64,000 nt of DNA from an uncultured Alphaproteobacteria bacterium (lineage in GTDB: Bacteria > Pseudomonadota > Alphaproteobacteria > JAAXGF01). The DNA lies in NCBI GenBank assembly GCA_964645285.1, contig CAZYDR010000001.1:4182-68181 (forward strand), in the 5' to 3' direction. Numbering within the stretch: the first letter of the stretch is position 1; every line of letters begins with the position of its first letter. The notes beneath the pieces were generated by a model. It was not told where the DNA came from. It searched no databases and was given only the letters and a program-made list of their open reading frames with translations. The position numbers and the translations under genes were made by a program. Positions 434 through 40,156 of this stretch are shown piece after piece.

Positions 434-1921
434 ATGAAAATGCCCGAACCGGATCGCGACGCCCTGGCCCAGCGTGAGGCGTTGATTGGAACGTTCAGCG
501 CCATGCTGCTCGACGGCTCTGTGATCGCCGCCGACGACGAGCTGCGAGTCTACGAGAGCGACGGCCTCACCGCCTATGGCCAGCGGCCCATGCTGGTGGT
601 CCTGCCTGAGACCGTCGATCAGGTCTCGCGCATCCTGGCACACTGTCACGAGCGCGGCGTCAAGGTGGTGCCCCGGGGCGCCGGTACCGGGCTATCGGGC
701 GGCGCCCTGCCGCTCGCTGACGGCGTCACTCTAGGTCTATCGAAGTTCAACCGCATCCTCGACGTCGATCTCGGCAACCGCTGCGTGGTTACCCAAACCG
801 GCGTCACCAATCTCGCCATTACCCAGGCGGTGACGGCGGACGGCTTCTACTACGCCCCCGATCCGTCAAGCCAGATTGCCTGCTCGATCGGCGGCAACGT
901 GGCCGAGAACTCGGGCGGCGTTCATTGCCTGAAATACGGCGTCACCACCAACAACCTGCTCGGCCTCGAAATGGTGCTGATGGACGGCGAAGTGCTGCGC
1001 CTCGGCGGCAAGCACATGGATGCGGGCGGCTATGACCTGCTCGGCGTGCTGACCGGTTCCGAGGGCCTGCTCGGGGTCATCACCGAGGTCACCGTACGCA
1101 TTCTGCACGACCCGGCCTCGGCGCGGGCGCTGCTCATCGGCTTCCCGACCATCGAAGCGGCCGGCGACTGCGTCGGCCGGGTGATCGCCGCCGGCATCAT
1201 TCCCGGCGGCATGGAAATCATGGACCGCGCCGCGGTCGAGGCGGCCGAGGCATTCTGCCACGCCGGCTACCCGCTCGACGCCGGCGCCCTGCTCATCGTC
1301 GAGCTCGACGGCCCCGAAGTCGAGGTCGACTACCTGATCGACCGGGTGCGTGGCATCGCCGAGCTGTGCGGCGCCACCACGCTGCGCGCCAGCACCAGCG
1401 AGGCCGAGCGCGAGCGCTTCTGGGTCGGACGCAAGGCGGCGTTCCCGGCGGTCGGCCGCATCTCACCCGATTACTACTGCATGGACGGCACCATCCCGCG
1501 CCACCGCCTGCCCGAGGTGCTGGCGCGCATCGCCGAGCTGTCGGACAAATACGGACTGCGGGTGGCCAACGTGTTTCATGCCGGCGACGGCAACCTCCAC
1601 CCGCTGATCCTCTACGACACCAACATCCCCGGCGAGTTGGAGAAGACCGAGGAATTCGGCACCGAGATCCTCAAGCTCTGCGTCGCGGTCGGCGGCGTGC
1701 TGACCGGCGAACACGGGGTCGGCATTGAGAAGCGCGACCTCATGGGCATTATGTTCAGTGAGATCGACCTGGAACAGCAGCAGCGCCTCAAATGCGCCTT
1801 CGACCCGGACGGCCTGCTCAATCCCGGTAAAGTATTTCCGGAACTTCATCGCTGCGCCGAGCTCGGCCGCATGCATGTTCATCATGGCCAGACCGCATTC
1901 CCTGATATCCCGCGGTTCTGA
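434..1921 (+). CDS. glcD: glycolate oxidase FAD-linked subunit GlcD
   Basis: FAD-binding PCMH-type oxidase signatures (GAGTGLSGGA, VVTQTGVTN) and about 500 aa matching GlcD. The start is moved to the MKMPEP Met because the 356 start overlaps the upstream gene. Confidence 0.85.
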   Translation: MKMPEPDRDALAQREALIGTFSAMLLDGSVIAADDELRVYESDGLTAYGQRPMLVVLPETVDQVSRILAHCHERGVKVVPRGAGTGLSGGALPLADGVTLGLSKFNRILDVDLGNRCVVTQTGVTNLAITQAVTADGFYYAPDPSSQIACSIGGNVAENSGGVHCLKYGVTTNNLLGLEMVLMDGEVLRLGGKHMDAGGYDLLGVLTGSEGLLGVITEVTVRILHDPASARALLIGFPTIEAAGDCVGRVIAAGIIPGGMEIMDRAAVEAAEAFCHAGYPLDAGALLIVELDGPEVEVDYLIDRVRGIAELCGATTLRASTSEAERERFWVGRKAAFPAVGRISPDYYCMDGTIPRHRLPEVLARIAELSDKYGLRVANVFHAGDGNLHPLILYDTNIPGELEKTEEFGTEILKLCVAVGGVLTGEHGVGIEKRDLMGIMFSEIDLEQQQRLKCAFDPDGLLNPGKVFPELHRCAELGRMHVHHGQTAFPDIPRF

Positions 1922-4495: not shown

Positions 4496-4957
4496 TTGGA
4501 AGGCGGGTGGCCTCGCCCTATGATGGATCGCATGAGGATTATCGTCGCCATGGTCGCCATTCTGGTGATAGCAAACTCCCCGGCCGCCGCGCGTCAGGAC
4601 GACCCGCGCCTCGACGGCCTGTTTACCGAGCTCCTGACGGCGACCGACACAGACTCGGCCCATGAGCTGGAAATGTCCATCTGGCGCATCTGGACCGAGG
4701 CCGGCGATGAAGATCTCGACCAGCTCATGAACTTCGGCATCGGCGCCATGCGGGCCGGTCAATTCGGCCCGGTACTCAACAGCTTCAATGCCATCATCGA
4801 CGCCGACCCGGCCTTCGCCGAAGGCTGGAACAAGCGCGCCACCCTGTACTTTTATCTGGGCCGCTACAATGACTCGATCAGTGACGTGGAACGAACCCTG
4901 GCACTCGAGCCCCGCCACTTCGGCGCCCTCTCCGGCATGGGCCTGATCCACACCTAA
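4496..4957 (+). CDS. tetratricopeptide (TPR) repeat protein with N-terminal signal peptide; reading frame continues in-frame past a TAA to 5080
   Basis: Hydrophobic leader MRIIVAMVAILVIANSPAAA followed by TPR-like helices (ATLYFYLGRYNDSISDVERTLALEP). The stop is at 4955-4957, but the next 41 codons in the same frame (LDDEAMVLQWFEHALEVNPHMPF...) continue the TPR pattern. Confidence 0.55.
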   Translation: MEGGWPRPMMDRMRIIVAMVAILVIANSPAAARQDDPRLDGLFTELLTATDTDSAHELEMSIWRIWTEAGDEDLDQLMNFGIGAMRAGQFGPVLNSFNAIIDADPAFAEGWNKRATLYFYLGRYNDSISDVERTLALEPRHFGALSGMGLIHT

Positions 4958-5281
4958 CTGGACGACGAAGCGATGGTCCTCCAGTGGTTCGAACACGCCC
5001 TCGAGGTCAATCCCCACATGCCCTTCATCCTGCAGCGCGTAGACTATTTGCGAGACAAGCTCCAGGGCGAACCGATCTGAGTGCACGCGGCGTAGAGAAC
5101 GCTGGGAAGGCGGGATTTTAGCCTCGTGAAGCGCAACAGAAGTGCCGCGAAGGCGGGCCTGGCTGGACACCTCATTGGCAGCATTGATTGTCTTCTAGAT
5201 CCCTATCGCAAAAAAAATCGCGCTTCTAGGTAGACTCGCGGATATCCGCGAAAATTAGTCCGACGGGGCAAGGACGGGGCA

Positions 5282-5656
5282 ATGAGTTCAAAACGATTAT
5301 TGGTGGTCGATGACGAGCCGGACTTCCGCGAGTTCGTGGTAGAGGTCGCCGAAGGACTGGGTTACCACGTGGAAAGCGCCGCCAACGGCGCCGAGTTCAA
5401 AGTGCTGTTCGACGCCTGCCAGCCCGATGTCGCCGTTGTCGATGTGGTAATGCCGGGCATTGACGGTATCGAACTTGTCAGTTGGTTGGCCGACCAGGCA
5501 ACGAACCTGCGTCTCATAATGGTCACCGGGTTCACACTCCACTATACGGAACTGGCCAAGAAACTGGGTGAGGCCAGGGGCCTGCACTCAGTCACCACGT
5601 TGCACAAACCCGTGCGCCTCGCGGCCCTCCGCGAGGCGATCACCGCGGACGACTGA
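5282..5656 (+). CDS. single-domain response regulator (CheY-like receiver)
   Basis: LLVVDDEPDF acidic pocket, phospho-acceptor Asp in VAVVDVVMPGIDG, conserved Thr/Lys (MVTGF...LHKP). 124 aa with no output domain. Confidence 0.8.
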   Translation: MSSKRLLVVDDEPDFREFVVEVAEGLGYHVESAANGAEFKVLFDACQPDVAVVDVVMPGIDGIELVSWLADQATNLRLIMVTGFTLHYTELAKKLGEARGLHSVTTLHKPVRLAALREAITADD

Positions 5657-5944
5657 TTAATAACAAGGAACAATAATAGAGACTCATAGAGACGGCTTCC
5701 CGTGGTTTTCGGCCAGGCGCGTTTGTCGCCACGATGCGGGGTATCGCAAGACGAGCGCAACGATGTCCGCCAGGGGGATTATTGGCGAAAGCCACGGGAA
5801 GCCGCCGTCCTGGTCGCGTCCGCTTATCGCCGGAGGGCGTCAGGACTCCTTGACGACGCGCCGCATCGCCTGTGCGCTCTCCCTACCCGGCGAAAAGCGA
5901 AAACGATCTCTATGGGCCTCTACTATCGCTCCTTGGTATAAACC

Positions 5945-7504
5945 TTAAGCTGCCACGACTTTCGGCCATGGTGTGGCGATATGGGCTATGGCGCTATTGT
6001 CACCTGACTTGTCCCGCATAACCGCATTGGGTGTGGCGAACGAAGTTGGCCGCACACCGCTCTGCTCGACGATTATGGGACGCTTGGCCGCAATGGCATC
6101 GACAATCCCGTCGCCCAGGCGGGGATCCACGGTCACCCCCGGCCCACCGCTTACATCGATGCGCGGCTGCTGAAATGCGTTATTCAAGTTCATGTCGAAG
6201 TCGTGGATGAACAAGATCAGCTGGAATAGCGCCGGGAAGATGCGTCGCCCCCCCGAGGCGCCGAGGGCGAAGTCCGGCTTATCATCCCGGACAACCACCG
6301 TTGGCGCCATGTTCGACAGCGGCCGCTTACCCGGCGCGATGGAGTTGATACGCCCCGGCACCGGATCGAACCACAGCATGCCGTTATTGAGAATGACGCC
6401 GGTTTCGGGCAGGCGCACCATGCTGCCGAAGGTCGACATCAGGGTCTGGGTCACCACCACCATATTACCGTCGCCGTCGATCACCGAGAAGTTGGTGGTC
6501 GACGATTGCGCCTGGGAAACCTCACCCATGGTCGCCAGGCGGGTCTCGTAAGCCTGGAACAGGGAGTCCGCTACGGCCAGGTAAGTGGCGGCGTCGGGTG
6601 TTGAACCCAGATCATGGGCTTCGAGCAGCCGCAAGGCGTCAAGCAAGGTCGGGCCGGCGGACAGGCCGGGCGCCGAATGGATTGTCGCGCCGCGATACTG
6701 GCCGGTGCTGGGGGCGCAAACGGTGGTGCGGAAGTCCGCCAGATCCTCCTGCCGGAGCGGACAGCCGGCGCGGCGTGCGTCACCATCGATCTTTGCCGCG
6801 ATCTCGCCGGAATAGAAATCCTCGGGCCCGGCCACGGAGAGGCGCTTGAGGGTCGCGGCCAGGGCGTCGAGGTTGAGCCGCGGCATGCCGCCGTCCCAGG
6901 GCGCCGCCGGCGGGTAGCCACCCGGCAGATAGACCTCGGCGAGACTGGGATAGCGGGCAATGGTCGCCGCTTCGTAGGCGATGATCAGGGTGGCGTACCA
7001 GTCGATCCACATGCCCCGTTCAGCGAGCAATACGGCAGGCTCAAGGGATTCGCGCCAGCTCCGCGTGCCGAAATCCTTGAGCAGGGTGGCCATGCCCGAC
7101 ACAACGGTTGGTACCCCTACGGAATAAGGGCCGATGAAATTGCGGTCGTCGATGACCGCCGGCCAGCCAAAGCCACCGTCGCTGGTGCCGCCGGTCAGGG
7201 GATAGTCATCGGGGTTGACACCGCGCGGCGCCACGGTGCCGAAATCAAGCGACGTGACCTTCTTGCTCGAAGCGTCGAACACCTGAACAAAGCCACAGCC
7301 GCCGAGGCCGCTATTCCATGGCTCGACGATGCCAATGGCGAAACTAACGGCGACGGCGGCATCGACCGCGTTGCCGCCGGCGCGCAGCACCTCGGCGCCA
7401 ATTTCCGAGGCATCGGCGTGGTTGGTGGCGACCAACCCGCCGCGGCTGTACACCGCCGCCTTGGTTACTGCCCATTGCTCCGTGATATTTTCCGATGTGA
7501 CCAT
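5945..7504 (-). CDS. ggt: gamma-glutamyltransferase
   Basis: GGT family: the nucleophile Thr lies in SSTTNFSVIDGDGNMVVVTQTL and the GASGGRRIFPA motif is present. 519 aa. Confidence 0.85.
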   Translation of the reverse strand: MVTSENITEQWAVTKAAVYSRGGLVATNHADASEIGAEVLRAGGNAVDAAVAVSFAIGIVEPWNSGLGGCGFVQVFDASSKKVTSLDFGTVAPRGVNPDDYPLTGGTSDGGFGWPAVIDDRNFIGPYSVGVPTVVSGMATLLKDFGTRSWRESLEPAVLLAERGMWIDWYATLIIAYEAATIARYPSLAEVYLPGGYPPAAPWDGGMPRLNLDALAATLKRLSVAGPEDFYSGEIAAKIDGDARRAGCPLRQEDLADFRTTVCAPSTGQYRGATIHSAPGLSAGPTLLDALRLLEAHDLGSTPDAATYLAVADSLFQAYETRLATMGEVSQAQSSTTNFSVIDGDGNMVVVTQTLMSTFGSMVRLPETGVILNNGMLWFDPVPGRINSIAPGKRPLSNMAPTVVVRDDKPDFALGASGGRRIFPALFQLILFIHDFDMNLNNAFQQPRIDVSGGPGVTVDPRLGDGIVDAIAAKRPIIVEQSGVRPTSFATPNAVMRDKSGDNSAIAHIATPWPKVVAA

Positions 7505-7514
7505 GACGCTGCCC

Positions 7515-8399
7515 CTATTCGACGCCGGCGATGAACTCGCGCATCAACCCCATGTACTCGGCGCGCTTCTCGGCGAAGGCCATATGGGACGCGTCCTCGA
7601 TCTCCGTCACCTTGGCGCCGGGCACCAGGGCGGCGTACTCGCGGCAGGAGTGGGGAGTGGCCTCGTCGAACTCGCCGCAGGTGAACAGGGTCGGCGCCGA
7701 GATTTGGTGCAGCCGTTCGCTACAATCGTAGTCGGCGAGAGTGCCGTTGGCGGTGAATTCGCTGGGACCCCACATGGTGCTGTAGCACTCAAGATTGAGG
7801 GCGTCGAAGGCGCGCAGCACATAGTCGGGCAACGGGTCCATGCGGCAACCGTGAAGGCCGCTGAACACATCGACAGCTTCCTGGTAGGCCGGGTCGTCGG
7901 TGGTGTCCGCCGCTTCGTGGTGGTCGAGGGCGGCTCGGACCTCGGCGGGAAGCTGATTGCGATAGGCGGTGTTGTCAGCGATCCAGCGATGGGTATTGAT
8001 CAATGGGCTCGACAGCACCAAACCCGCCAAGTCCGCCGGGCGGCCAATGGCGTATTCGGCGGCAATGGTTCCGCCCCAGGAATTGCCAATGATAACAACC
8101 CGCTCAAGGCCCAGGGTACGGCGCACCGCATCGACTTCGGCAACGAAGCGCTCGACCCGCCAGTTGACCGGATCGCCGGGCCGGTCGGCCTTGCCGGCGT
8201 CGAGCTGGTCGTAAAAAACCACCCGCCGCTCATCGGCCAGATCGACCAGCGGCAACATGTACTCGTGGCTCATGCCCGGCCCGCCGTGAATGCACAGCAC
8301 CGGCACCGCACCGTCGTGGCGCCCGCCGTTGTCGCGATACCACACCCTGCCGCCTTCGACATCGATGGTGCCGGTCTGCTCCGCCTGGGGTTCTGTCAT
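7515..8399 (-). CDS. proline iminopeptidase-family alpha/beta hydrolase
   Basis: VLCIHGGPG... and nucleophile elbow GNSWGG are typical of the prolyl aminopeptidase / S33 family. Confidence 0.75.
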   Translation of the reverse strand: MTEPQAEQTGTIDVEGGRVWYRDNGGRHDGAVPVLCIHGGPGMSHEYMLPLVDLADERRVVFYDQLDAGKADRPGDPVNWRVERFVAEVDAVRRTLGLERVVIIGNSWGGTIAAEYAIGRPADLAGLVLSSPLINTHRWIADNTAYRNQLPAEVRAALDHHEAADTTDDPAYQEAVDVFSGLHGCRMDPLPDYVLRAFDALNLECYSTMWGPSEFTANGTLADYDCSERLHQISAPTLFTCGEFDEATPHSCREYAALVPGAKVTEIEDASHMAFAEKRAEYMGLMREFIAGVE

Positions 8400-8403
8400 T
8401 GTT

Positions 8404-9555
8404 TCACGCTGCCTCTCCGTTTAGCATTTTGCGGGCGATCCACTGGTACCAGCGCAGGATGGGTTCCTCCATCCAGCTCATGTAGCCCGGCGCCGCCTTG
8501 GCCGAGCGAACGCCCATGGCAATATATGGCATGCTCTCGCCGTCTTCGTCGAGGGCGCGGCTTGAATCATAGGCTTCACCGTCCGGTGCATAGCGGCGCA
8601 GTTCGCCTTCCGGCCGTACCGACCCGGCCCGGTAGCGCACCTGATCGACCCCAACCGGCCACAGGGCATAGAAACCGGCGCCGCCGGGATAGATCACAAA
8701 GGCATTGGCCGGATGGATCATGACGATGTCGAGGCTGGACACATCCTGTCCGATATCGCCGGGCTTCCAATTGACCTCTTCGATGAGATCGCGGCTGACC
8801 TGACGGTCCATGTAATAGGGCACCTGATAGCGCGTCCAGCCGTCACTATAGGTAATGTTGGTGGTGTTATGGGTCGGCGAATATGTCTCCAACGTATTCT
8901 CGTGGAGGCCCATGTGGTGATAGCCCTCCATGTTGTTCTCGTTGAAGTTCTTCCAGTTGCCCGGCCATACTTTGTCGTAGTGGTTGGTCATGGTCCAGTC
9001 GTCGGCGCATTTGTAGGGCGCGAACGCCTGATCCAGAGCTTCCACCGTCGGCGCCAACGGCGCGGCATGGTCGTCCAGGTTGACCCAGATGAGATCGTTC
9101 CAGATTTCGAGGCGAAACTTGGGCAGGCAAATCTTGTTCTTGTCGAACTCCTGGTGCCGCTCCATGTGAAGCGGCTGCACGAGCTTGCCGTCCAACTCGT
9201 AGGTCCAGTGGTGATAAGGGCAGCGGAAGCGGTTGGCATTGCCGCTCTCGCCAGGCTTGACCACCAGCATGTAGCGGTAGCGGCATACGGTGGAGAGCGC
9301 CCGGATTGCCATGTCCGGGCCGCGCACGATGACCAGGGGCTCGCCGACCAGTTCCACCGTAAAGAAATCACCGGGACTACGGATTTCGGATACGTGGCCG
9401 ACGTCGATCCATTGCTTTTTCCAGATGGTCTCGACCTCGAGATCGAAAAACGCCTGGGAGGTGTAATGGGCAGGCTCCATGGTACGCATGCGATCGACCG
9501 GCAGGTCGAGATAGGACTTAAGCGACCCCAGAAGGGTCGTGAGGCCGGGTTCCAT
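8404..9555 (-). CDS. Rieske (2Fe-2S) ring-hydroxylating oxygenase alpha subunit, atypical first cluster motif
   Basis: Rieske motif 2 is CPYHHWTY. The mononuclear Fe motif ENNMEGYHHMGLH is present. Motif 1 reads CRYRYM instead of the canonical CxHRGM. Confidence 0.8.
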   Translation of the reverse strand: MEPGLTTLLGSLKSYLDLPVDRMRTMEPAHYTSQAFFDLEVETIWKKQWIDVGHVSEIRSPGDFFTVELVGEPLVIVRGPDMAIRALSTVCRYRYMLVVKPGESGNANRFRCPYHHWTYELDGKLVQPLHMERHQEFDKNKICLPKFRLEIWNDLIWVNLDDHAAPLAPTVEALDQAFAPYKCADDWTMTNHYDKVWPGNWKNFNENNMEGYHHMGLHENTLETYSPTHNTTNITYSDGWTRYQVPYYMDRQVSRDLIEEVNWKPGDIGQDVSSLDIVMIHPANAFVIYPGGAGFYALWPVGVDQVRYRAGSVRPEGELRRYAPDGEAYDSSRALDEDGESMPYIAMGVRSAKAAPGYMSWMEEPILRWYQWIARKMLNGEAA

Positions 9556-9599
9556 AATATCCTCCGGATGGCATCGGTATATGTCAGAACTATAAGCCG

Positions 9600-9624: not shown

Positions 9625-9732
9625 ACGACGGCGGCAATGGTTGACCTTTCAATCGCCGCCGATGTTGCCGTACCATGAGGCGCGGTCGTCGTCTTCGCGC
9701 CGCATAATCCTGATGCAACGGTAGGAACCACT

Positions 9733-10656
9733 ATGAAACTGGGAATCAGTCTGCCCGGAACCGACCTTGGCCCCGACCCTTTGGCGCTGCGGGACTTCAC
9801 CCAGCTCTCCGAGGAACTCGGTTACGACCATTTGGCGGTCTACGAGAACACCCTGAACATCAACCCGGTGAGCCTGCCCGACTGGGACGGCGTCGAGGAG
9901 CCCGGCAGTTCCTACCACGACCCCTTTGTCCTGCTCGGTTATCTAGCGGGGCAGACCACATACATCGAGCTCTCGGTGCAGGTGCTCGTGCTGGCCCAGC
10001 GTCAGACTGCCCTGGTCGCCAAACAGGCGGCCTCGCTGGATTTTCTGAGCGGCGGGCGGCTTCGCCTTGGCGTCGGGATTGGATGGGACGAGAAACAATT
10101 TATCGCCCTTGATGCGGATTTCTCCAGCCGGGGCGCGCGCTCGGCGGAACAGATCGATGTCATGAAGGCGTTGTGGCGCGACCAGTACGTGGATTTCGAC
10201 GGCAAATGGCACCGCATTCCCGATGCCGGGATCAACCCTCGGCCGACCGGCAATTCCCTGGAGGTCTGGTTCGGCGGCAAGCACGACAACGTGCTGCAAC
10301 GCATTGCCCGGATCGGTGACGGCTGGATGCCGCTGCACCTTGCCGCCGCCGATGACGCCCCGCGTGAGATCGCCCGGCGCGAGATCGAGACCCTGATGGG
10401 CTACGCCGAGACCAACGGGCGCGGCCGTGACGAGATCGGTATCGACGGCTGGGTTTCCATGGGCGCCGGGACCGCCGACGACTGGCGCCGGGAAATCCTC
10501 GGCTGGCGCGAGCTGGGCGCCAGCCATATCACCCTCAACACCGCTTTCGATGTGGGTCACCACAGCCGTATTGCGGGGCGGAACTTCGACGATCACGCCG
10601 CCGCCATACGGGAATACATGGCCGTGGTGAAGGATCTGTTCGAAACCTCCAACTGA
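9733..10656 (+). CDS. LLM-class (luciferase-like) F420/flavin-dependent oxidoreductase
   Basis: MKLGISLPG...LRLGVGIGWDEKQF...WFGG is the characteristic TIM-barrel LLM family. Confidence 0.75.
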   Translation: MKLGISLPGTDLGPDPLALRDFTQLSEELGYDHLAVYENTLNINPVSLPDWDGVEEPGSSYHDPFVLLGYLAGQTTYIELSVQVLVLAQRQTALVAKQAASLDFLSGGRLRLGVGIGWDEKQFIALDADFSSRGARSAEQIDVMKALWRDQYVDFDGKWHRIPDAGINPRPTGNSLEVWFGGKHDNVLQRIARIGDGWMPLHLAAADDAPREIARREIETLMGYAETNGRGRDEIGIDGWVSMGAGTADDWRREILGWRELGASHITLNTAFDVGHHSRIAGRNFDDHAAAIREYMAVVKDLFETSN

Positions 10657-12744: not shown

Positions 12745-14058
12745 TTAGCCCGTACCGGGCTTCTCCAGCCGCGCCATCACCTGCTTCGCACTTGCTATGA
12801 GGGGCGCGAACCAGGAGCGGCCGCTATAGAACGGCATGGTCTTGAACGGCAGTTCGTCGAACGCGGTCTCGCTGCCCGGCTCTCCCATCAGCCTGAGGGC
12901 AACCTTGTTGCCAAGATGGGTCCCGGTGGGCAGGCCGCCGCCGTTCATGCCGAGGACGTAATAGACGCCGTCGTGGCGGCCGATATGGGGCAGCGTATCG
13001 AAGGTCAGCCCCAACTGCCCGTGCCAGTAATGGCTCAAACCGACATCGGCGAGTTGCGGGTGGATCTCGCACATCTCGCCATGCAGCGCCGTGGCAATAC
13101 GGCGGTCGCGGTAGAGCGGGCGGATCGTCTGACCGAGAAACAGGATCCGCGGCTCGTCCGGGGCGATGCACCACGAATGGAAGTTGTTGCGTACATCGAG
13201 GTTGACGCGGCCGCTCGGGAAGAGCTCCGCCAGGGTCTCTTGGGGCAGCGGCTCGGTGGCCACCATATGGGCGTTGACCGGGATGATGCGGCGCCTGAGG
13301 AAGGGCGTTTCCTTGCCGATGTAGCCGTTGGTCGCGACCACCACGTCGCCCGCCTCGATCGTCCCCCGGCTGGTCGCCACGTCGAAGGTTTGTGCCCGTT
13401 GCTCGATACCGAGGACGCGGGTATGGTCAAGGATCGTCGCGCCCGCCGCCTCGACCCGGTCGATCAGGCCATCGACCAGCAGCGCCGGATGACAGGCGCC
13501 GGTGCCGGGAAACGCGACGCCGCCATAATAGAAATCCGACCCGGTCTCGCGCCGCTTGTCCTCGGGGCCGATGACATAGCCCTCGACGCCGGCGTGCTCC
13601 CGCATGAACTCCAGATCGCGGGTCTTGTACTCAAGCTGCTCGCGGTTGTAGGCCCAATAGACCCGGCCGCACTGGCGGTACTGGCAATGGATTTGCTCGC
13701 GTTCGATCAGCTCGGTGACATATTTGAAGGCGGCGTGGGTCTCGCGATATATGCCGGCCGCCCGCTCCATGCCGTGGCGCTTGGCCAGATCGACGAACGA
13801 GGCCATGGGCGCCACACCGACATAGCCGTGGTTTCGCGAGCTGGCGCCGAAGCCGGGCGCCTCGGCGTCAAGAACAACCACCTCGCGCCCATGGCGGGCC
13901 AGGGTCAAGGCCGCCGACAGTCCGGTGAACCCGGAGCCGACCACCACCACATCGGCCTTGGCCGGCAGCATGGCGTCGGCGCTCTCGGGCCGCCGCGGCG
14001 CTGCTTCCCACCAATAGGGTTCCTCCTTGAATCCGGAGGCGAATACCGATCCGGTCAT
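12745..14058 (-). CDS. FAD-dependent oxidoreductase (DAO / glycine-D-amino-acid oxidase family)
   Basis: Rossmann dinucleotide motif DVVVVGSGFTGLSAALTLA near the N-terminus. The start is reassigned to MTGSVF, which has a GGAG RBS; the longer ORF start at 14193 is an Arg-rich overextension. Confidence 0.75.
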   Translation of the reverse strand: MTGSVFASGFKEEPYWWEAAPRRPESADAMLPAKADVVVVGSGFTGLSAALTLARHGREVVVLDAEAPGFGASSRNHGYVGVAPMASFVDLAKRHGMERAAGIYRETHAAFKYVTELIEREQIHCQYRQCGRVYWAYNREQLEYKTRDLEFMREHAGVEGYVIGPEDKRRETGSDFYYGGVAFPGTGACHPALLVDGLIDRVEAAGATILDHTRVLGIEQRAQTFDVATSRGTIEAGDVVVATNGYIGKETPFLRRRIIPVNAHMVATEPLPQETLAELFPSGRVNLDVRNNFHSWCIAPDEPRILFLGQTIRPLYRDRRIATALHGEMCEIHPQLADVGLSHYWHGQLGLTFDTLPHIGRHDGVYYVLGMNGGGLPTGTHLGNKVALRLMGEPGSETAFDELPFKTMPFYSGRSWFAPLIASAKQVMARLEKPGTG

Positions 14059-14074
14059 GGTGCTGCTCCTATCC

Positions 14075-14407
14075 CTAGACCGCGTCGTCGAACCAGCTTT
14101 CGCCGGCCTCCCCGTGTTCGGCGATGGAGTCTTTGTAGCGTTGCTGAGTTTCCGGCGCCGCATCGGTCTGGTGGTTGGCCTTCCACTCGGCATAGGTCAT
14201 GCCGTAGATCAGCGTGCGGGCATCGTCGTAGCTGATCTCGTCGCCATGCTCGGCGGCCGCCGCGCGATACCACTTGGACAGGCAGTTGCGGCAGAATCCG
14301 GCGTTGTTCATGACGTCGATATTCTGCACGTCGGTGCGCTGGCGGAAGTGATGGACCATGCGGCGGAACACAGCGGCCTCGACTTCAGTGCGGGTCTGAT
14401 TGTCCAT
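14075..14407 (-). CDS. DUF1244 family protein
   Basis: The blocks FRRMVHHFRQRTDVQNIDVMNNAGFCRNCLSKWY match the DUF1244 family. Its last 8 codons are duplicated at 9600..9624. Confidence 0.7.
   Translation of the reverse strand: MDNQTRTEVEAAVFRRMVHHFRQRTDVQNIDVMNNAGFCRNCLSKWYRAAAAEHGDEISYDDARTLIYGMTYAEWKANHQTDAAPETQQRYKDSIAEHGEAGESWFDDAV
14077..14101. repeat. 25-nt direct repeat copy B (inside the 3' end of the DUF1244 gene)
   Basis: AGACCGC[G]TCGTCGAACCAGCTTTC; partner of 9600..9624. Confidence 0.7.
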
Positions 14408-14471
14408 TTATTATCTCCCTCTGGATTGGTTCACTCGACACGGCGCATGTATCGATCCCGGTTTATTGTTA

Positions 14472-14515
14472 GCGCCGACAATTCATGGAATCGATTTCGT
14501 GGTCAAGGTCGAACC
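14472..14515. repeat. solo copy of a ~44-bp IS30-like element terminus
   Basis: GCGCCGACAATTCATGGAATCGATTTCGTGGTCAAGGTCGAACC matches 20526..20569 at 41/44 in the same orientation. The partner copy abuts an IS30 transposase remnant. Confidence 0.6.
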
Positions 14516-14531
14516 CGGAACCCAAGGGGTA

Positions 14532-14864
14532 TCACGCCGATGGCACCAACAGATAAGGCGCGGCCCCGTCGCACTGTGACACGGAAACCCTGCTATTGAT
14601 CTCAAGCGGAGCCCGGGACGCGCCCATAAGCTGGACCTCGGCGGCGCCATGGAGTTGGACCATGGCGATATAGAACGGAACCTCGCCCGTCGGGCTATAG
14701 ACCGGGGATCGGTCCACGCGGGTGACAGCCGTCACGGAACCGCTCGCAGGGAGTGAAACGGGTTCGCATTGTTCGGCGCCACAGCCCGCGCAGGCATAAC
14801 GGCCGCGCAGCCGGTGGGTGCCGCAACTCTGGCAGCGATCGACAAGAAGGCTGTGGTCCGACAT
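14532..14864 (-). CDS. DUF35 Zn-ribbon/OB-fold protein (thiolase-like aldolase partner)
   Basis: A CxxC...CxxC zinc ribbon (CQSCGTHRL...CAGCGAEQCE) followed by an OB-fold tail. It sits immediately downstream of an SCP2-thiolase-like gene, as is usual for DUF35. Confidence 0.75.
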   Translation of the reverse strand: MSDHSLLVDRCQSCGTHRLRGRYACAGCGAEQCEPVSLPASGSVTAVTRVDRSPVYSPTGEVPFYIAMVQLHGAAEVQLMGASRAPLEINSRVSVSQCDGAAPYLLVPSA

Positions 14865-14867
14865 TGG

Positions 14868-16004
14868 CTAGGCCTCCAGAACAATCGAGACATGGGACGA
14901 AAACACGCCGCCATCGGCGTGGAGGAACGCGGCAGGCCGGCGGGCGGCCCCAGTCGCATCGTCCTCACGAGCCGCCCGGACGATCTCGACCAGATGGGCC
15001 AGACCGCCGGCGACGCCGCTATGGCCGTAGGACAACAGGCCGCCATGGGTGTTCAGCGGCAGGTCGCCGTCGCCATCAAAGCGGCCCTCTTTGGCGTCGC
15101 TCGTCGCCTGCCCGGCGGCGCTGACGCCGCACGCCTCAAGCAGTATGGCCAGGGTCACCGTGAAGCTGTCGTAAATCGCGACGCGGCCCATATCCGCCAT
15201 ACGCCGGCCGGCGGTGTCCAGGGCGGTGCGTGAGGCCCGCACAGCACCCTCGGCAATATCCGCCGGGGCGGCGCTCATGTGCTGGTGGGTGTGTGACTGA
15301 CCGGTTCCGGTGACCCGCAGCGCCGGGCCACGGGCGGGAGGCGTGGCGGAGACCACAACCGCCGCGCCGCCATCAGAGACCGGACAGCAGTCGAGCAGTT
15401 TCAGGGGCGTGGCAATGGGCTTGCTCGCCATGACCTCGGCGACCGTGATCGGCTTCGAGAAATGGGCGCCGGGCGTCGCTGCCGCATGGCGGCGCATGAG
15501 CACCGCGAACTCGGCCAGATCGACCTCGGACAAGCCCGTCCGGTGAAGGTAGGCCGAGGCGACGAGGCCGTAATAAGCCGGAACGGAAGCACCGTTCGGC
15601 GCCTCGTGCAGGGGGTCACCGACCTCGGACAGGACCCGCGTGGTCGCCGCGCCGGTTTGCCCGCTGAGGCGATTCTCGCCGGCGACTACGAGGATGGTCT
15701 CCGCGGCGCCGGACGCAATCAGATGGCGGGCTAGGGCGACCATGGCCAGCCCCGAGGCGCCGCCAACCGAAATGCCGTAGGCGCAGCTGGGCTGCAACGC
15801 GAAGGCCTCGGCGAAGCGCGTGGCGGGCATGAGGTGCGGCGCCGTAGTCGCGTAGCCGACAAGCAGGCCGTCGATCTGCCGGCGCTGCAAACCGCTGTCG
15901 GCCAAAGCCGCGCTGGCGGCCCGGGCCTGAAGATCGAGGGCGGAGGCCGGGCCAAGCTTGCCGAATTCGGTCAGCCCGACGCCGCAAATATAGGCGTCCC
16001 TCAT
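14868..16004 (-). CDS. thiolase-like lipid-transfer protein (SCP-x/Ltp-type aldolase-thiolase)
   Basis: MRDAYICGVGLTEFGK... is a thiolase fold lacking the canonical biosynthetic thiolase motifs, like Ltp2-type proteins. Confidence 0.8.
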   Translation of the reverse strand: MRDAYICGVGLTEFGKLGPASALDLQARAASAALADSGLQRRQIDGLLVGYATTAPHLMPATRFAEAFALQPSCAYGISVGGASGLAMVALARHLIASGAAETILVVAGENRLSGQTGAATTRVLSEVGDPLHEAPNGASVPAYYGLVASAYLHRTGLSEVDLAEFAVLMRRHAAATPGAHFSKPITVAEVMASKPIATPLKLLDCCPVSDGGAAVVVSATPPARGPALRVTGTGQSHTHQHMSAAPADIAEGAVRASRTALDTAGRRMADMGRVAIYDSFTVTLAILLEACGVSAAGQATSDAKEGRFDGDGDLPLNTHGGLLSYGHSGVAGGLAHLVEIVRAAREDDATGAARRPAAFLHADGGVFSSHVSIVLEA

Positions 16005-16393
16005 GGCTGCGCCTTGTCACTGTCGGGCGTGAAGCTGCCGGCGATGGCCGCTTCGCCGTCCTCCCGTTCGACGGTCAAGCGCAGGGCGCCGGCGGCGTCA
16101 GGCTCGAGAACAACCCGAACCGCATCGCCCACGAAAATCGGCTTGAGAAACCGGACCTCGGCGCGGCCCGCGAGGAAGGCGGTCTCGCCGACAAAGCGGC
16201 GCAGCTCGGAAAGCGCCCGCGCCAGAGAGAGCGTTCCGTGGGCGATAGGCCGGCCCATGGCCGTGGTGGCGGCGAAGTCCGGGTCGAGATGGATCGGGTT
16301 CATGTCGCCGGTCAGGGCCGCGTAGGCCTCGGTGCGCGAGCGGTCAACTCGGACCCAGTCGGTGACATGGCGCGGCGCCATTATTTCGCCCAT
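16001..16393 (-). CDS. MaoC-family (R)-hydratase hotdog protein
   Basis: The MaoC dehydratase signature LTGDMNPIHLDPDFAATTAMGRPIAHG is present. Confidence 0.75.
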   Translation of the reverse strand: MGEIMAPRHVTDWVRVDRSRTEAYAALTGDMNPIHLDPDFAATTAMGRPIAHGTLSLARALSELRRFVGETAFLAGRAEVRFLKPIFVGDAVRVVLEPDAAGALRLTVEREDGEAAIAGSFTPDSDKAQP

Positions 16394-16767
16394 AGGAAAC
16401 TCATTTCGCCCTCGACAACCATCTCGCTATCCGATGTCAGGGTCAGGCCGAAGGTGACCCAGGGCCGGCCTTTCTTACGCTCCTTTGCGATGCACCGGGC
16501 ACGGGCCATGAAGCGGTCCCCCGGCGCCAGAAGCCGCCCCACGGTCAGGCTCTGGCCGGCATGGATATTCCCCGGCGGGCGCGGCGAAATGATGGAAATA
16601 TAGGCGCGCATCATCATGCCGATAGTCATTTCGACACGGCCATCAAAGTCGCCCATGTCCGGAAAGGCTTTACCTAGGTGATCGCGCGCGTCGTCGGTCA
16701 CGACCATCTCGCGTGTACCGATCTCGTGGCCGACCTGGAAATCGTCGAAAGTGAGAACTTTGCTCAT
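16381..16767 (-). CDS. hotdog-fold protein (MaoC N-terminal-like hydratase partner subunit)
   Basis: 128-aa hotdog-fold protein overlapping the MaoC gene start; this pairing is typical of heteromeric ChsH1/ChsH2-like enoyl-CoA hydratases. Confidence 0.65.
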   Translation of the reverse strand: MSKVLTFDDFQVGHEIGTREMVVTDDARDHLGKAFPDMGDFDGRVEMTIGMMMRAYISIISPRPPGNIHAGQSLTVGRLLAPGDRFMARARCIAKERKKGRPWVTFGLTLTSDSEMVVEGEMSFLWAK

Positions 16768-16834
16768 GGTACCGCCTGCCGCTCAACATCGGTGTCGAGC
16801 GCTAGAGTGTATCCCGATAATGTAGGAAAATGCT

Positions 16835-18478
16835 CTAGGCGTTGCCCTCGCCGTGAACCACCCTGCCGCCGACAATGGTGGTGTCCACCTGAACCTCCTT
16901 AAGAGCATCGATCGGAATCTCGAATGGGTTTCGGTCGAGTACGATGACGTCGGCCAGCTTGCCGGTCTCGATCGAGCCCTTGCTGTCTTCCTCGAACCCG
17001 GCGCGGGCCGAGAAGGTCGTATAGAGCCGGATGCCGTCCATCACGGTGAGCGCTTCCTCGGGGCAGATTAGGCGGCCGCTCCGGGTCTCGCGGGCGACAG
17101 TGCACCAGATGCTCCACCACGGGTTCAACGCCTCGGGCTCGGTGCCCATGGAATCCGAATTGCCCGGCGGCATGAAGCCTTCGTCCAGCAGAGTGCGATA
17201 GGGCGCCGCCTTGTCGCCCTGGTTGGCGGTCTCGAGCCAGCCGTCGCCATACCAGCCTAGCGAACTGTAGGGCGTCGGCACCGGGATGATTCCCAACTCC
17301 TTGAGTCGGGCCAGCCCTTCGGGCCAATAGTCGCCGGCGAAATGTTCGATGCGGTGGCGATGATCGGCGCGCGGCGCCGCGTCCAGGGTGGTGCTGACCG
17401 CCTCGATGGCCATGGCCTGAGCGTCACGGGAGATGGCGTGCATCATCATGCGGATGCCGGATTTGTGAGCGCCGGCAACCAGATCGTTCAACTCGTCCTG
17501 GCTGAGGCGCATCCATTCCTGGTGAACGCCGTCGGCATCGCGCCCGGCGCCGTCGATGAACATCTTGGCGCTGCCGAATTTGAGCCAGTCGTTGCCGAAG
17601 CCAGTCTGCATTCCGAGGTTGATCAAGCCTTCGAGATCAACCGTGCGATACATTCCCCAGACGCAGGGGCAAAGCTGCACCCGGAGCGGCAGTTCGCCGT
17701 CGCGGTAGAGGTCCTGATAAATTCGCGTGCTCTCGGGCCAGCTCAGGAACTCGTGGATGCCGGTGATGCCGAACGCGGAGGCCTCGCCTAGGGTCTCGCG
17801 AATGGCGCCCTTGAGGGTGTAGTAGGGCCACGGGTTATGTTTGCGAAAAATCCAGTCGATGGCCTCGTGAATGATGCCCGTGGGCTCGCCGCTCGCCGTA
17901 TCGCGAACGATGCGACCGCCGTTGGCGACCGCGTGGAGTTCGGCGTCGGTCGGCGAATCCCTGGTTATGCCGGCCATGGCGAGGGCCTTGCCGTTCAACA
18001 TCTGACAGTGGGCGCTGTAGCGAACCATAAGCGGATGATCCGGCGCCGCCGCGTCGAAATCCGCCCGGCTCGGCGAGTTGCCGTCGGCCTCCAGAGGGAA
18101 ACGGCCCTGGCCGATGATCCACCGACCTTTGGGCGTGCGCGCAGCCTCGTCCCTGACCCAGGCGAGAATGGCCTCGCGGGTGTCGCCACCGCCCGAGACG
18201 CCGACATATTCGACCGGCGGGATATGGCAGCTCCCGGCCAGCTTGGTGTGGGTCGCCGTGCAATCGAGATGGATGTGGGTATCGATGAACCCCGGCAACG
18301 CGACGCGGCCCTTGAGGTCGATCACCCGCGTCTGGTCACCGATCAAGGCGTCCATGTCGGACCCGGCGCCCAGCGCAACGATGCGCTCGCCGTTAAAGGC
18401 GGCCGCTTCGACAGTCGTGCCGGCGGCATCCATGGTGACAATTTGGCCGTTCGTCAGAACCATATCCGCAGTCATCAT
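16835..18478 (-). CDS. amidohydrolase-family metal-dependent hydrolase
   Basis: The N-terminal metal-binding HxH lies in LPGFIDTHIHLD; 547 aa, amidohydrolase_3-like architecture. Confidence 0.8.
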   Translation of the reverse strand: MMTADMVLTNGQIVTMDAAGTTVEAAAFNGERIVALGAGSDMDALIGDQTRVIDLKGRVALPGFIDTHIHLDCTATHTKLAGSCHIPPVEYVGVSGGGDTREAILAWVRDEAARTPKGRWIIGQGRFPLEADGNSPSRADFDAAAPDHPLMVRYSAHCQMLNGKALAMAGITRDSPTDAELHAVANGGRIVRDTASGEPTGIIHEAIDWIFRKHNPWPYYTLKGAIRETLGEASAFGITGIHEFLSWPESTRIYQDLYRDGELPLRVQLCPCVWGMYRTVDLEGLINLGMQTGFGNDWLKFGSAKMFIDGAGRDADGVHQEWMRLSQDELNDLVAGAHKSGIRMMMHAISRDAQAMAIEAVSTTLDAAPRADHRHRIEHFAGDYWPEGLARLKELGIIPVPTPYSSLGWYGDGWLETANQGDKAAPYRTLLDEGFMPPGNSDSMGTEPEALNPWWSIWCTVARETRSGRLICPEEALTVMDGIRLYTTFSARAGFEEDSKGSIETGKLADVIVLDRNPFEIPIDALKEVQVDTTIVGGRVVHGEGNA

Positions 18479-39373: not shown

Positions 39374-39595
39374 GTTCCACCCATGTCGTCACCCGGCACG
39401 GTGTACCGTTTGCTTACAAAACGTTGGCCTCAACCTTCGAGCCCGTATTCGAGTCATTCTAAGGCGTCGGGAGGACCCTGTTAAGCGGCGCCAAATAATC
39501 TTTAAAAAGCTGTTCGCCGGAGGGCTGGACATGGCGGCGTTTTGATGACAAAACCCATCCCATCTGAAGCTCACGAATTCTGGGAGGCGATCGGT

Positions 39596-40156
39596 ATGGC
39601 TGAATCAACCTCCGCCACCGGGCAGGGCGCTGCCCACGGCGAGGATGAAACGCGGCGTGATTTCTTGTATCTCGCCACCGGCGCCATGACAGCGGTCGGC
39701 GCCGTTGCTGCCTCTTGGCCCTTGATCGATAGCTGGAATCCGTCTGCCGACGTGCTGGCGTTGTCCAGCACCGAGGTTGATATTTCGCCGATCGAGGTCG
39801 GCCAGAGCATCACCGTTGTGTGGCGCGGCAAGCCGGTGTTTATACGCCACCGCACGGATGACGAAATCGCCAGCGCGCGCGATGTCGATGTTGCATCGCT
39901 GCCCCATCCGGAAAGCGACGCCGAGCGGGCGGAAAAGCCCGAGTGGCTGGTCATGGTCGGCATCTGCACCCATCTTGGCTGTATTCCCCTGGGCCAGAAA
40001 TCCGGCGACCCCAAAGGCAAGTTCGACGGCTGGTTCTGCCCCTGTCACGGCTCGCACTACGACACCTCGGGACGTATTCGTATCGGTCCGGCGCCGCTCA
40101 ATCTTGAGGTGCCGGCCTACGACTACCTCTCCGATGATGTCATTAAGATTGGTTGA
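39596..40156 (+). CDS. petA: ubiquinol-cytochrome c reductase Rieske iron-sulfur subunit
   Basis: Rieske boxes CTHLGCIP and CPCHGSHYD; a Tat-like RRDFLY N-terminus. The start is set at MAESTS, which has a GGAGG RBS. Confidence 0.85.

Follow-up and report, generated by a model that had tools for sequence, protein, structure and literature searches.

A strain-specific histidine-to-tyrosine substitution at a Rieske cluster ligand in an uncharacterised alphaproteobacterial oxygenase

Introduction

The ligands of the [2Fe-2S] cluster are conserved and family-defining in all five groups of Rieske non-haem iron oxygenases (PMC10952381). In CntA (PDB 6Y8J), a group Va enzyme and the oxygenase subunit of carnitine monooxygenase, these are Cys86, His88, Cys106 and His109 (PMC7948474), and its substrate is bound through a pi-cation contact with Tyr203 (PMC7948474, PMC10952381). 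The only experimental precedent that we found for changing the first histidine ligand comes from ARF, a Rieske-type ferredoxin of Sulfolobus studied as the variants H44C and H64C, of which H44C, at the first histidine, assembled no cluster (PMC2946596). ARF differs from an oxygenase alpha subunit in being a small ferredoxin, and the change made in it was to cysteine rather than tyrosine and was engineered rather than natural.

Here we describe a gene in a 64,000-nt stretch of alphaproteobacterial DNA (the window hereafter) whose product carries tyrosine in place of the first histidine ligand. We compare it with CntA and other described oxygenases, ask how widely the tyrosine occurs, and consider what it probably means for the enzyme.

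A Rieske oxygenase alpha subunit with tyrosine at the first histidine position

The gene lies on the minus strand at 8404..9555 and encodes 383 amino acids. Both Pfam domains expected of an alpha subunit were found well above their cutoffs, Rieske PF00355 at residues 48–128 (57.6 bits vs 20.3) and Ring_hydroxyl_A PF00848 at residues 192–377 (61 bits vs 24.9), bearing out its recognition as a Rieske alpha subunit in an earlier, sequence-only reading of this DNA. An AF2 model built on 35 family members (pLDDT 88.2, pTM 0.90), which we used for fold confirmation only, had 3n0q, Stc2 (3vca) and CntA as its best Foldseek matches (probability 1.00, TM 0.71–0.80), so that the two-domain fold of solved alpha subunits is present. 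Translation signals are also intact, with a GGAGG Shine-Dalgarno sequence (9561..9565, minus strand) 5 nt upstream of the ATG.

Reading the reverse complement gave codons 91–96 as TGC-CGC-TAC-CGC-TAC-ATG, with C91 (TGC) at 9285-9283, followed by R92 (CGC) and Y93 (TAC) at 9279-9277. The first Rieske box (9268..9285, minus strand) is thus C91-R-Y93-R-Y-M where the canonical form is C-x-H-R-x-x, exactly as the sequence-only reading had it, and codon 93 (9277..9279) specifies tyrosine at the position of the first histidine ligand. The second box, C112-P-Y-H115 (9211..9222, minus strand), is intact and continues as C112-P-Y-H115-H-W-T-Y, again as first read, so that three of the four cluster ligands (C91, C112 and H115) are kept. 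A displaced histidine elsewhere in box 1 was ruled out as the true ligand: apart from H115, the canonical second ligand, and its neighbour H116, residues 86–120 contain no histidine.

The catalytic iron site is likewise complete. The motif E206-N-N-M-E210-G-Y-H213-H-M-G-L-H218, also noted earlier, contains the bridging carboxylate E210 and the mononuclear-iron ligands H213 and H218 (E-G-Y-H-H-M-G-L-H; 8902..8928, minus strand), as placed by alignment to CntA, and E210, H213 and H218 are invariant in the subfamily alignment. The remaining, presumed carboxylate ligand of this iron is D338 (8542..8544, minus strand), which lies in an equally invariant E337-D338 column and presumably corresponds to D323 of CntA. 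The window protein is therefore a genuine alpha subunit of a Rieske oxygenase, with tyrosine where the first histidine ligand belongs.

CntA was the best PDB match by sequence (HMMER, E 3e-30, residues 25-224), with the same two-domain fold (Foldseek TM 0.71–0.80) at an identity of only ~22–30%. Its cluster ligands align with those of the window protein (C91 with Cys86, C112 with Cys106, H115 with His109), Y93 taking the place of His88, and at the iron site E210 corresponds to the bridging Glu205 and H213 and H218 to His208 and His213. For this numbering we took the 6y8j chain to be extended at its N-terminus by about 20 residues, so that native 86 and 88 are numbered 106 and 108 in the chain, since 391 residues were deposited against a native length that we take to be 371. 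The two proteins differ around the substrate, where Tyr203 of CntA is replaced by N208 and the Cys206/Cys209 pair (C-x-x-C, next to the iron) by G211 and H214, and no CntB-like reductase is encoded next to the window gene. Stc2, a stachydrine (proline betaine) demethylase, and the Ruegeria structural-genomics protein 3N0Q were the top structural matches (E ~1e-25, TM 0.79) at ~20% identity to the window protein, whose first histidine ligand is lost. Among NCBIfam models the best was that of the glycine betaine monooxygenase GbcA (NF058607, E 6.5e-36); because it scored 123.7 bits, far below its cutoff of 670, and covered only residues 29–238, the window protein is not a GbcA equivalog, and no GbcB gene is adjacent. 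Of the group V marks looked for, then, the equivalog score, the aromatic residue with the Cys pair and an adjacent CntB/GbcB-type reductase, none was found. We place the window protein in a subfamily of alphaproteobacterial, mostly marine enzymes that is uncharacterised and has its nearest relatives among the group V oxygenases of quaternary amines.

The TAC codon recurs in separately assembled contigs

The sequence-only reading had offered a sequencing error or an inactivating C-to-T change as one account of Y93. A true C at this site, encoding histidine, with TAC as an artefact of this contig, would call for just a single transition at one site. However, the exact 383-residue protein is recorded on 14 contigs, and all nine of those that we compared at the DNA level (ENA SAMN18055975, -78, -79 and -80; NCBI GCA_024712085, -145, -165 and -185; ENA ERZ27245254) showed no nucleotide difference from the window over the 1152 nt of the gene, TAC included. 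Their flanks, compared over stretches of up to 19.5 kb, matched the window at 99.98–100% identity. The nine represent five or more metagenome samples, each assembled separately, with marine habitat and sample independence judged from accession names only, and the alleles were compared as assembly consensus. Two efforts independent of each other produced the assemblies, one by the NCBI submitters and one as re-assemblies at ENA, and a MEGAHIT-style k141 contig comes from another ENA accession. Moreover, the Y93H 'revertant' of the exact protein is absent from a collection of 15 billion sequences, where no ancestral His allele of the strain was seen. Because nine contigs, drawn from several samples and from two sources of assemblies, reproduce TAC without a single nucleotide difference, an error is refuted for practical purposes, and we give it a negligible probability. 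The TAC allele is real, at least at the consensus level, and its carriers are one near-clonal marine alphaproteobacterial strain, repeatedly sampled and independently assembled.

Histidine is found throughout the family

Also proposed in the sequence-only reading was a genuine family with a Cys2-His1-Tyr or otherwise reorganised cluster. We surveyed for such a clade in the protein's own 90%-identity cluster, 120 word-indexed homologues, 150 HMMER representatives and 80 loci in GTDB genomes. The 90% cluster has 16 members, and the other 14 that were read (84–95% identical) all have C-R-H-R. Histidine was found in every orthologue and close homologue examined, from 94.5% identity downwards, with P0128 as the closest orthologue and L010 as the nearest one used in DNA comparison. 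At the DNA level the codon is CAC in L010/L011 (91.8% nucleotide identity), L012, L014, L016 and L018, from which TAC differs by one C-to-T transition on the coding strand. These five orthologues gave the very result that the earlier reading had named as speaking against its proposal.

The wider survey agreed. In an alignment of 84 homologues reaching down to ~25% identity, only the window protein and an unrelated singleton have a residue other than His at this position. Across 283 homologues, which include the best 150 of 12,166 HMMER hits (E <= 0.001) among 1.84 billion cluster representatives, 275 have His, five are fragments without the region, two have Leu and one, the window protein, has Tyr. 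The placement of Y93 on His88 of CntA and the presence of His in 275 of the 278 homologues that cover the column uphold the claim that tyrosine replaces the first ligand. The remaining ligand columns are just as strongly conserved among the 283 (278/278, then 280/280 for C112 and 279/280 for H115), and each of the 64 motifs recognised in the 80 loci of GTDB species-representative genomes has His. JGI metagenome contigs contained no match to a strain-specific DNA pattern allowing C or T at codon 93, nor to a relaxed-flank pattern requiring TAC. No Tyr clade or second Tyr lineage was seen among the cluster mates, homologues, GTDB loci and JGI contigs searched. On this comparison of sequences, the Tyr allele is private to one near-clonal strain and is not a family trait: the idea of a family with a reorganised cluster did not hold, and from the earlier pair of error or lesion only the strain-specific, inactivating part stands, given His in all close relatives.

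Other ligand losses were seen in the same data. P0083 and P0111, both metagenome singletons, have C-R-L-R, with Leu at the same first-ligand position, and the 99%-identical cluster mate of P0083 has His; P0231, also a singleton, has Asn at the second histidine ligand. In all, four ligand-loss singletons occur across the four Rieske ligand columns of ~280 sequences. Since P0083, P0111 and P0231 are singleton losses too, sporadic ligand-loss alleles are a background noise of ~1% in metagenome data of this kind. Metal-ligand substitutions in metagenome homologues thus call for a check against close orthologues before new cofactor chemistry is claimed.

Selection on the gene and age of the substitution

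Pairwise dN/dS between the window gene and that of L010 was 0.095, in the same range as for 14 neighbouring genes compared with L010 (0.07–0.41). When changes were polarised with three outgroups, the window branch had ~17 non-synonymous and ~30 synonymous substitutions and the sister branch ~9 and ~32, a two-fold N/S excess that is suggestive of relaxed selection on the strain branch but not significant (Fisher p = 0.17). At columns conserved in at least 90% of sequences, the window protein has two private substitutions and its six closest relatives none. These are H93Y, in a column that is 100% His, and P273S (codon 273, 8737..8739, minus strand), in one that is 97% Pro. The rest of the gene is intact, with a full-length reading frame, the GGAGG sequence and all other metal ligands. 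H93Y is probably recent, in a gene that would have been under purifying selection over most of the branch. The low dN/dS across a branch of ~4% divergence is itself uninformative on the time since the mutation, and the pattern of substitutions may fit a tolerated change as well as a fresh knockout.

Gene neighbourhood and redox partners

Five nt after the Rieske stop codon (a 4-nt intergenic gap) starts a co-oriented gene for an alpha/beta hydrolase of the proline iminopeptidase family (7515..8399, minus strand; TIGR01250, 288 bits vs a cutoff of 167.65). This adjacency is kept in L010, L012 and L016, and the two genes are probably in the same operon. The next co-oriented gene (5945..7504, minus strand) encodes a gamma-glutamyltransferase (GGT)-like protein (PF01019; TIGR00066 at 306 bits, below the 358 cutoff). 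Upstream of the Rieske gene and divergent from it are genes for an LLM-class oxidoreductase, an Abhydrolase_10 protein and a pipecolate-oxidase-like flavoprotein. Because an iminopeptidase-family hydrolase adjoins the oxygenase gene and a pipecolate-oxidase-like flavoprotein is encoded nearby, these neighbours, our sole guide here, loosely suggest a cyclic amino-acid or betaine substrate derived from proline or pipecolate. In the lineage of P0134, ~3.5 kb (L014, 11279..14612) is inserted between the Rieske and iminopeptidase-family hydrolase genes. The inserted genes are of LysR, BBE/FAD-oxidase and ornithine cyclodeaminase-like types, and the last of these is a further hint of proline/pipecolate-type metabolism around the oxygenase. 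Distant members of the subfamily have varied contexts, one of them lying among DMSP-lyase, MttB and corrinoid genes.

The earlier remark that no reductase or ferredoxin partner is near proved correct. No plant-type ferredoxin motif was found in ORFs of at least 80 aa across the 64-kb window, and no reductase family in the Pfam list for the 10 kb on either side of the Rieske gene. Reductase or ferredoxin genes were likewise not found adjoining the orthologues at 92–39% identity, and a missing partner is therefore normal for the subfamily and not a sign of decay. Nor does a gene for a beta subunit adjoin it (within 10 kb on either side of the Rieske gene), consistent with an alpha3-type enzyme.

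Probable consequence for the cluster

Normal members of the family are expected to work by taking an electron from a separately encoded reductase onto the Cys2His2 [2Fe-2S] cluster and passing it, via the bridging glutamate (E210), to the 2-His-1-carboxylate iron (H213, H218 and D338) of a neighbouring subunit, the mononuclear iron at which O2 would be activated. In Rieske centres the histidine-ligated iron is the site that is reduced. In the strain, the CAC-to-TAC transition has swapped the first histidine ligand for tyrosine, and Y93 would be expected to prevent cluster assembly, because the ligands are conserved in all groups of Rieske oxygenases and the H44C variant of ARF was clusterless. 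Y93 could block stable assembly or else drastically alter the histidine-ligated iron; without that iron, electrons would have no route to the mononuclear iron in the adjacent subunit, leaving the enzyme inactive or nearly so. By analogy, we infer that the Y93 protein has lost both cluster and activity. H93Y is thus best read as a recent loss-of-function or strongly hypomorphic allele of one strain, to which we would give a probability of roughly 80%, and which would so far have undergone no further decay. The strain's recurrence in several samples means that the allele, if costly at all, costs little in that habitat.

Two other readings have to be set against this one. The protein might retain a redox-active Cys2-His-Tyr(O) cluster, or a Cys2-His cluster completed by water or hydroxide, that sustains turnover at a perhaps shifted potential. 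The intact gene with its good Shine-Dalgarno sequence and the repeated recovery of the strain agree with this, and since there is neither stop nor frameshift and the N/S excess is not significant, continued function would be compatible with the sequence; the overall dN/dS of 0.095 points the same way, but it dates nothing about the mutation. Chemically, tyrosine would put an oxygen donor more or less where it is needed, and unusual ligand sets are known among [2Fe-2S] proteins, for example in the 3Cys-1His NEET proteins. Nevertheless, the ARF scaffold tolerated not even cysteine at the first histidine, our literature search for a tyrosine-ligated Rieske cluster turned up nothing for or against one, and conservation is lacking, with one clonal allele set against 275 relatives that have His. 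We therefore regard a working variant as unlikely.

Even less credit is due to a non-redox role, in which a clusterless Y93 subunit would be kept because it joins a paralogue in mixed trimers or because the downstream hydrolase and GGT genes need its translation in order to be expressed. Related MAGs do carry several paralogues of the subfamily (L022, L026, L035, L039 and L043 in one of them), yet there is none within the 64-kb window, where the sole other Rieske motif is of the bc1 type (PetA), and to our knowledge paralogous alpha subunits of Rieske oxygenases are not established to form heterotrimers. Translational coupling is plausible, given that the downstream gene starts only 5 nt past the stop codon, but nothing sets such a role apart from a simple recent loss-of-function allele, and we hold it to be very unlikely.

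If H93Y is a loss-of-function allele, it carries little weight for biology at large, being a private allele of one strain in a conventional though uncharacterised oxygenase, and it marks a strain in which a putative catabolic operon is probably being lost. Should Y93 bind a cluster after all, a single mutation would have produced a natural tyrosinate-ligated Rieske-type centre, which would give work on non-His ligation of such centres an inexpensive natural system to start from.

Other lesions and differences in the window

Two further lesions lie within 5 kb of the Rieske gene. A TPR-repeat gene (4520..5080, plus strand) has an in-frame stop at 4955-4957, reading GLIHT*LDDEA where L010 has Glu (GLIHTELDDEA, in a protein of 182 aa), and is called as ORFs of 145 and 35 aa, with the same split in the other samples of the strain. 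Moreover, the response regulator at 5282..5656 (plus strand) is an orphan: the 1060-aa PAS/HisKA sensor kinase found in L010 and on the P0128 contig is missing beside it, and in its place are ~200 bp (~5081..5281) in which tblastn detected no kinase remnant; the region of L010 compared here is 13654..17207. The more distant relatives L012 and L014 lack both kinase and response regulator, and so the pair is a variable insert. The premature stop and the absent kinase suggest that inactivation is the more natural reading of H93Y, without proving it.

Some minor differences were also seen. A 288-bp non-coding stretch (5657..5944) separates the response regulator from the GGT-like gene; L010, with 6 bp between these genes, has nothing equivalent. 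In the LLM-class oxidoreductase gene (9733..10656), the ERZ23491178 contig (L007, ~1337..1346) is ~42 bp shorter at the start of the gene, the equivalent of window ~9726..9777, giving a product of 291 aa rather than 307 aa; either a polymorphic indel or an artefact of assembly may explain this. Finally, the second Rieske motif of the window, CTHLGC...CPCH in a protein of ~200 aa (39506..40153, plus strand), has both histidines, matches the pattern of the cytochrome bc1 iron-sulfur subunit (PetA) and is unrelated to Y93.
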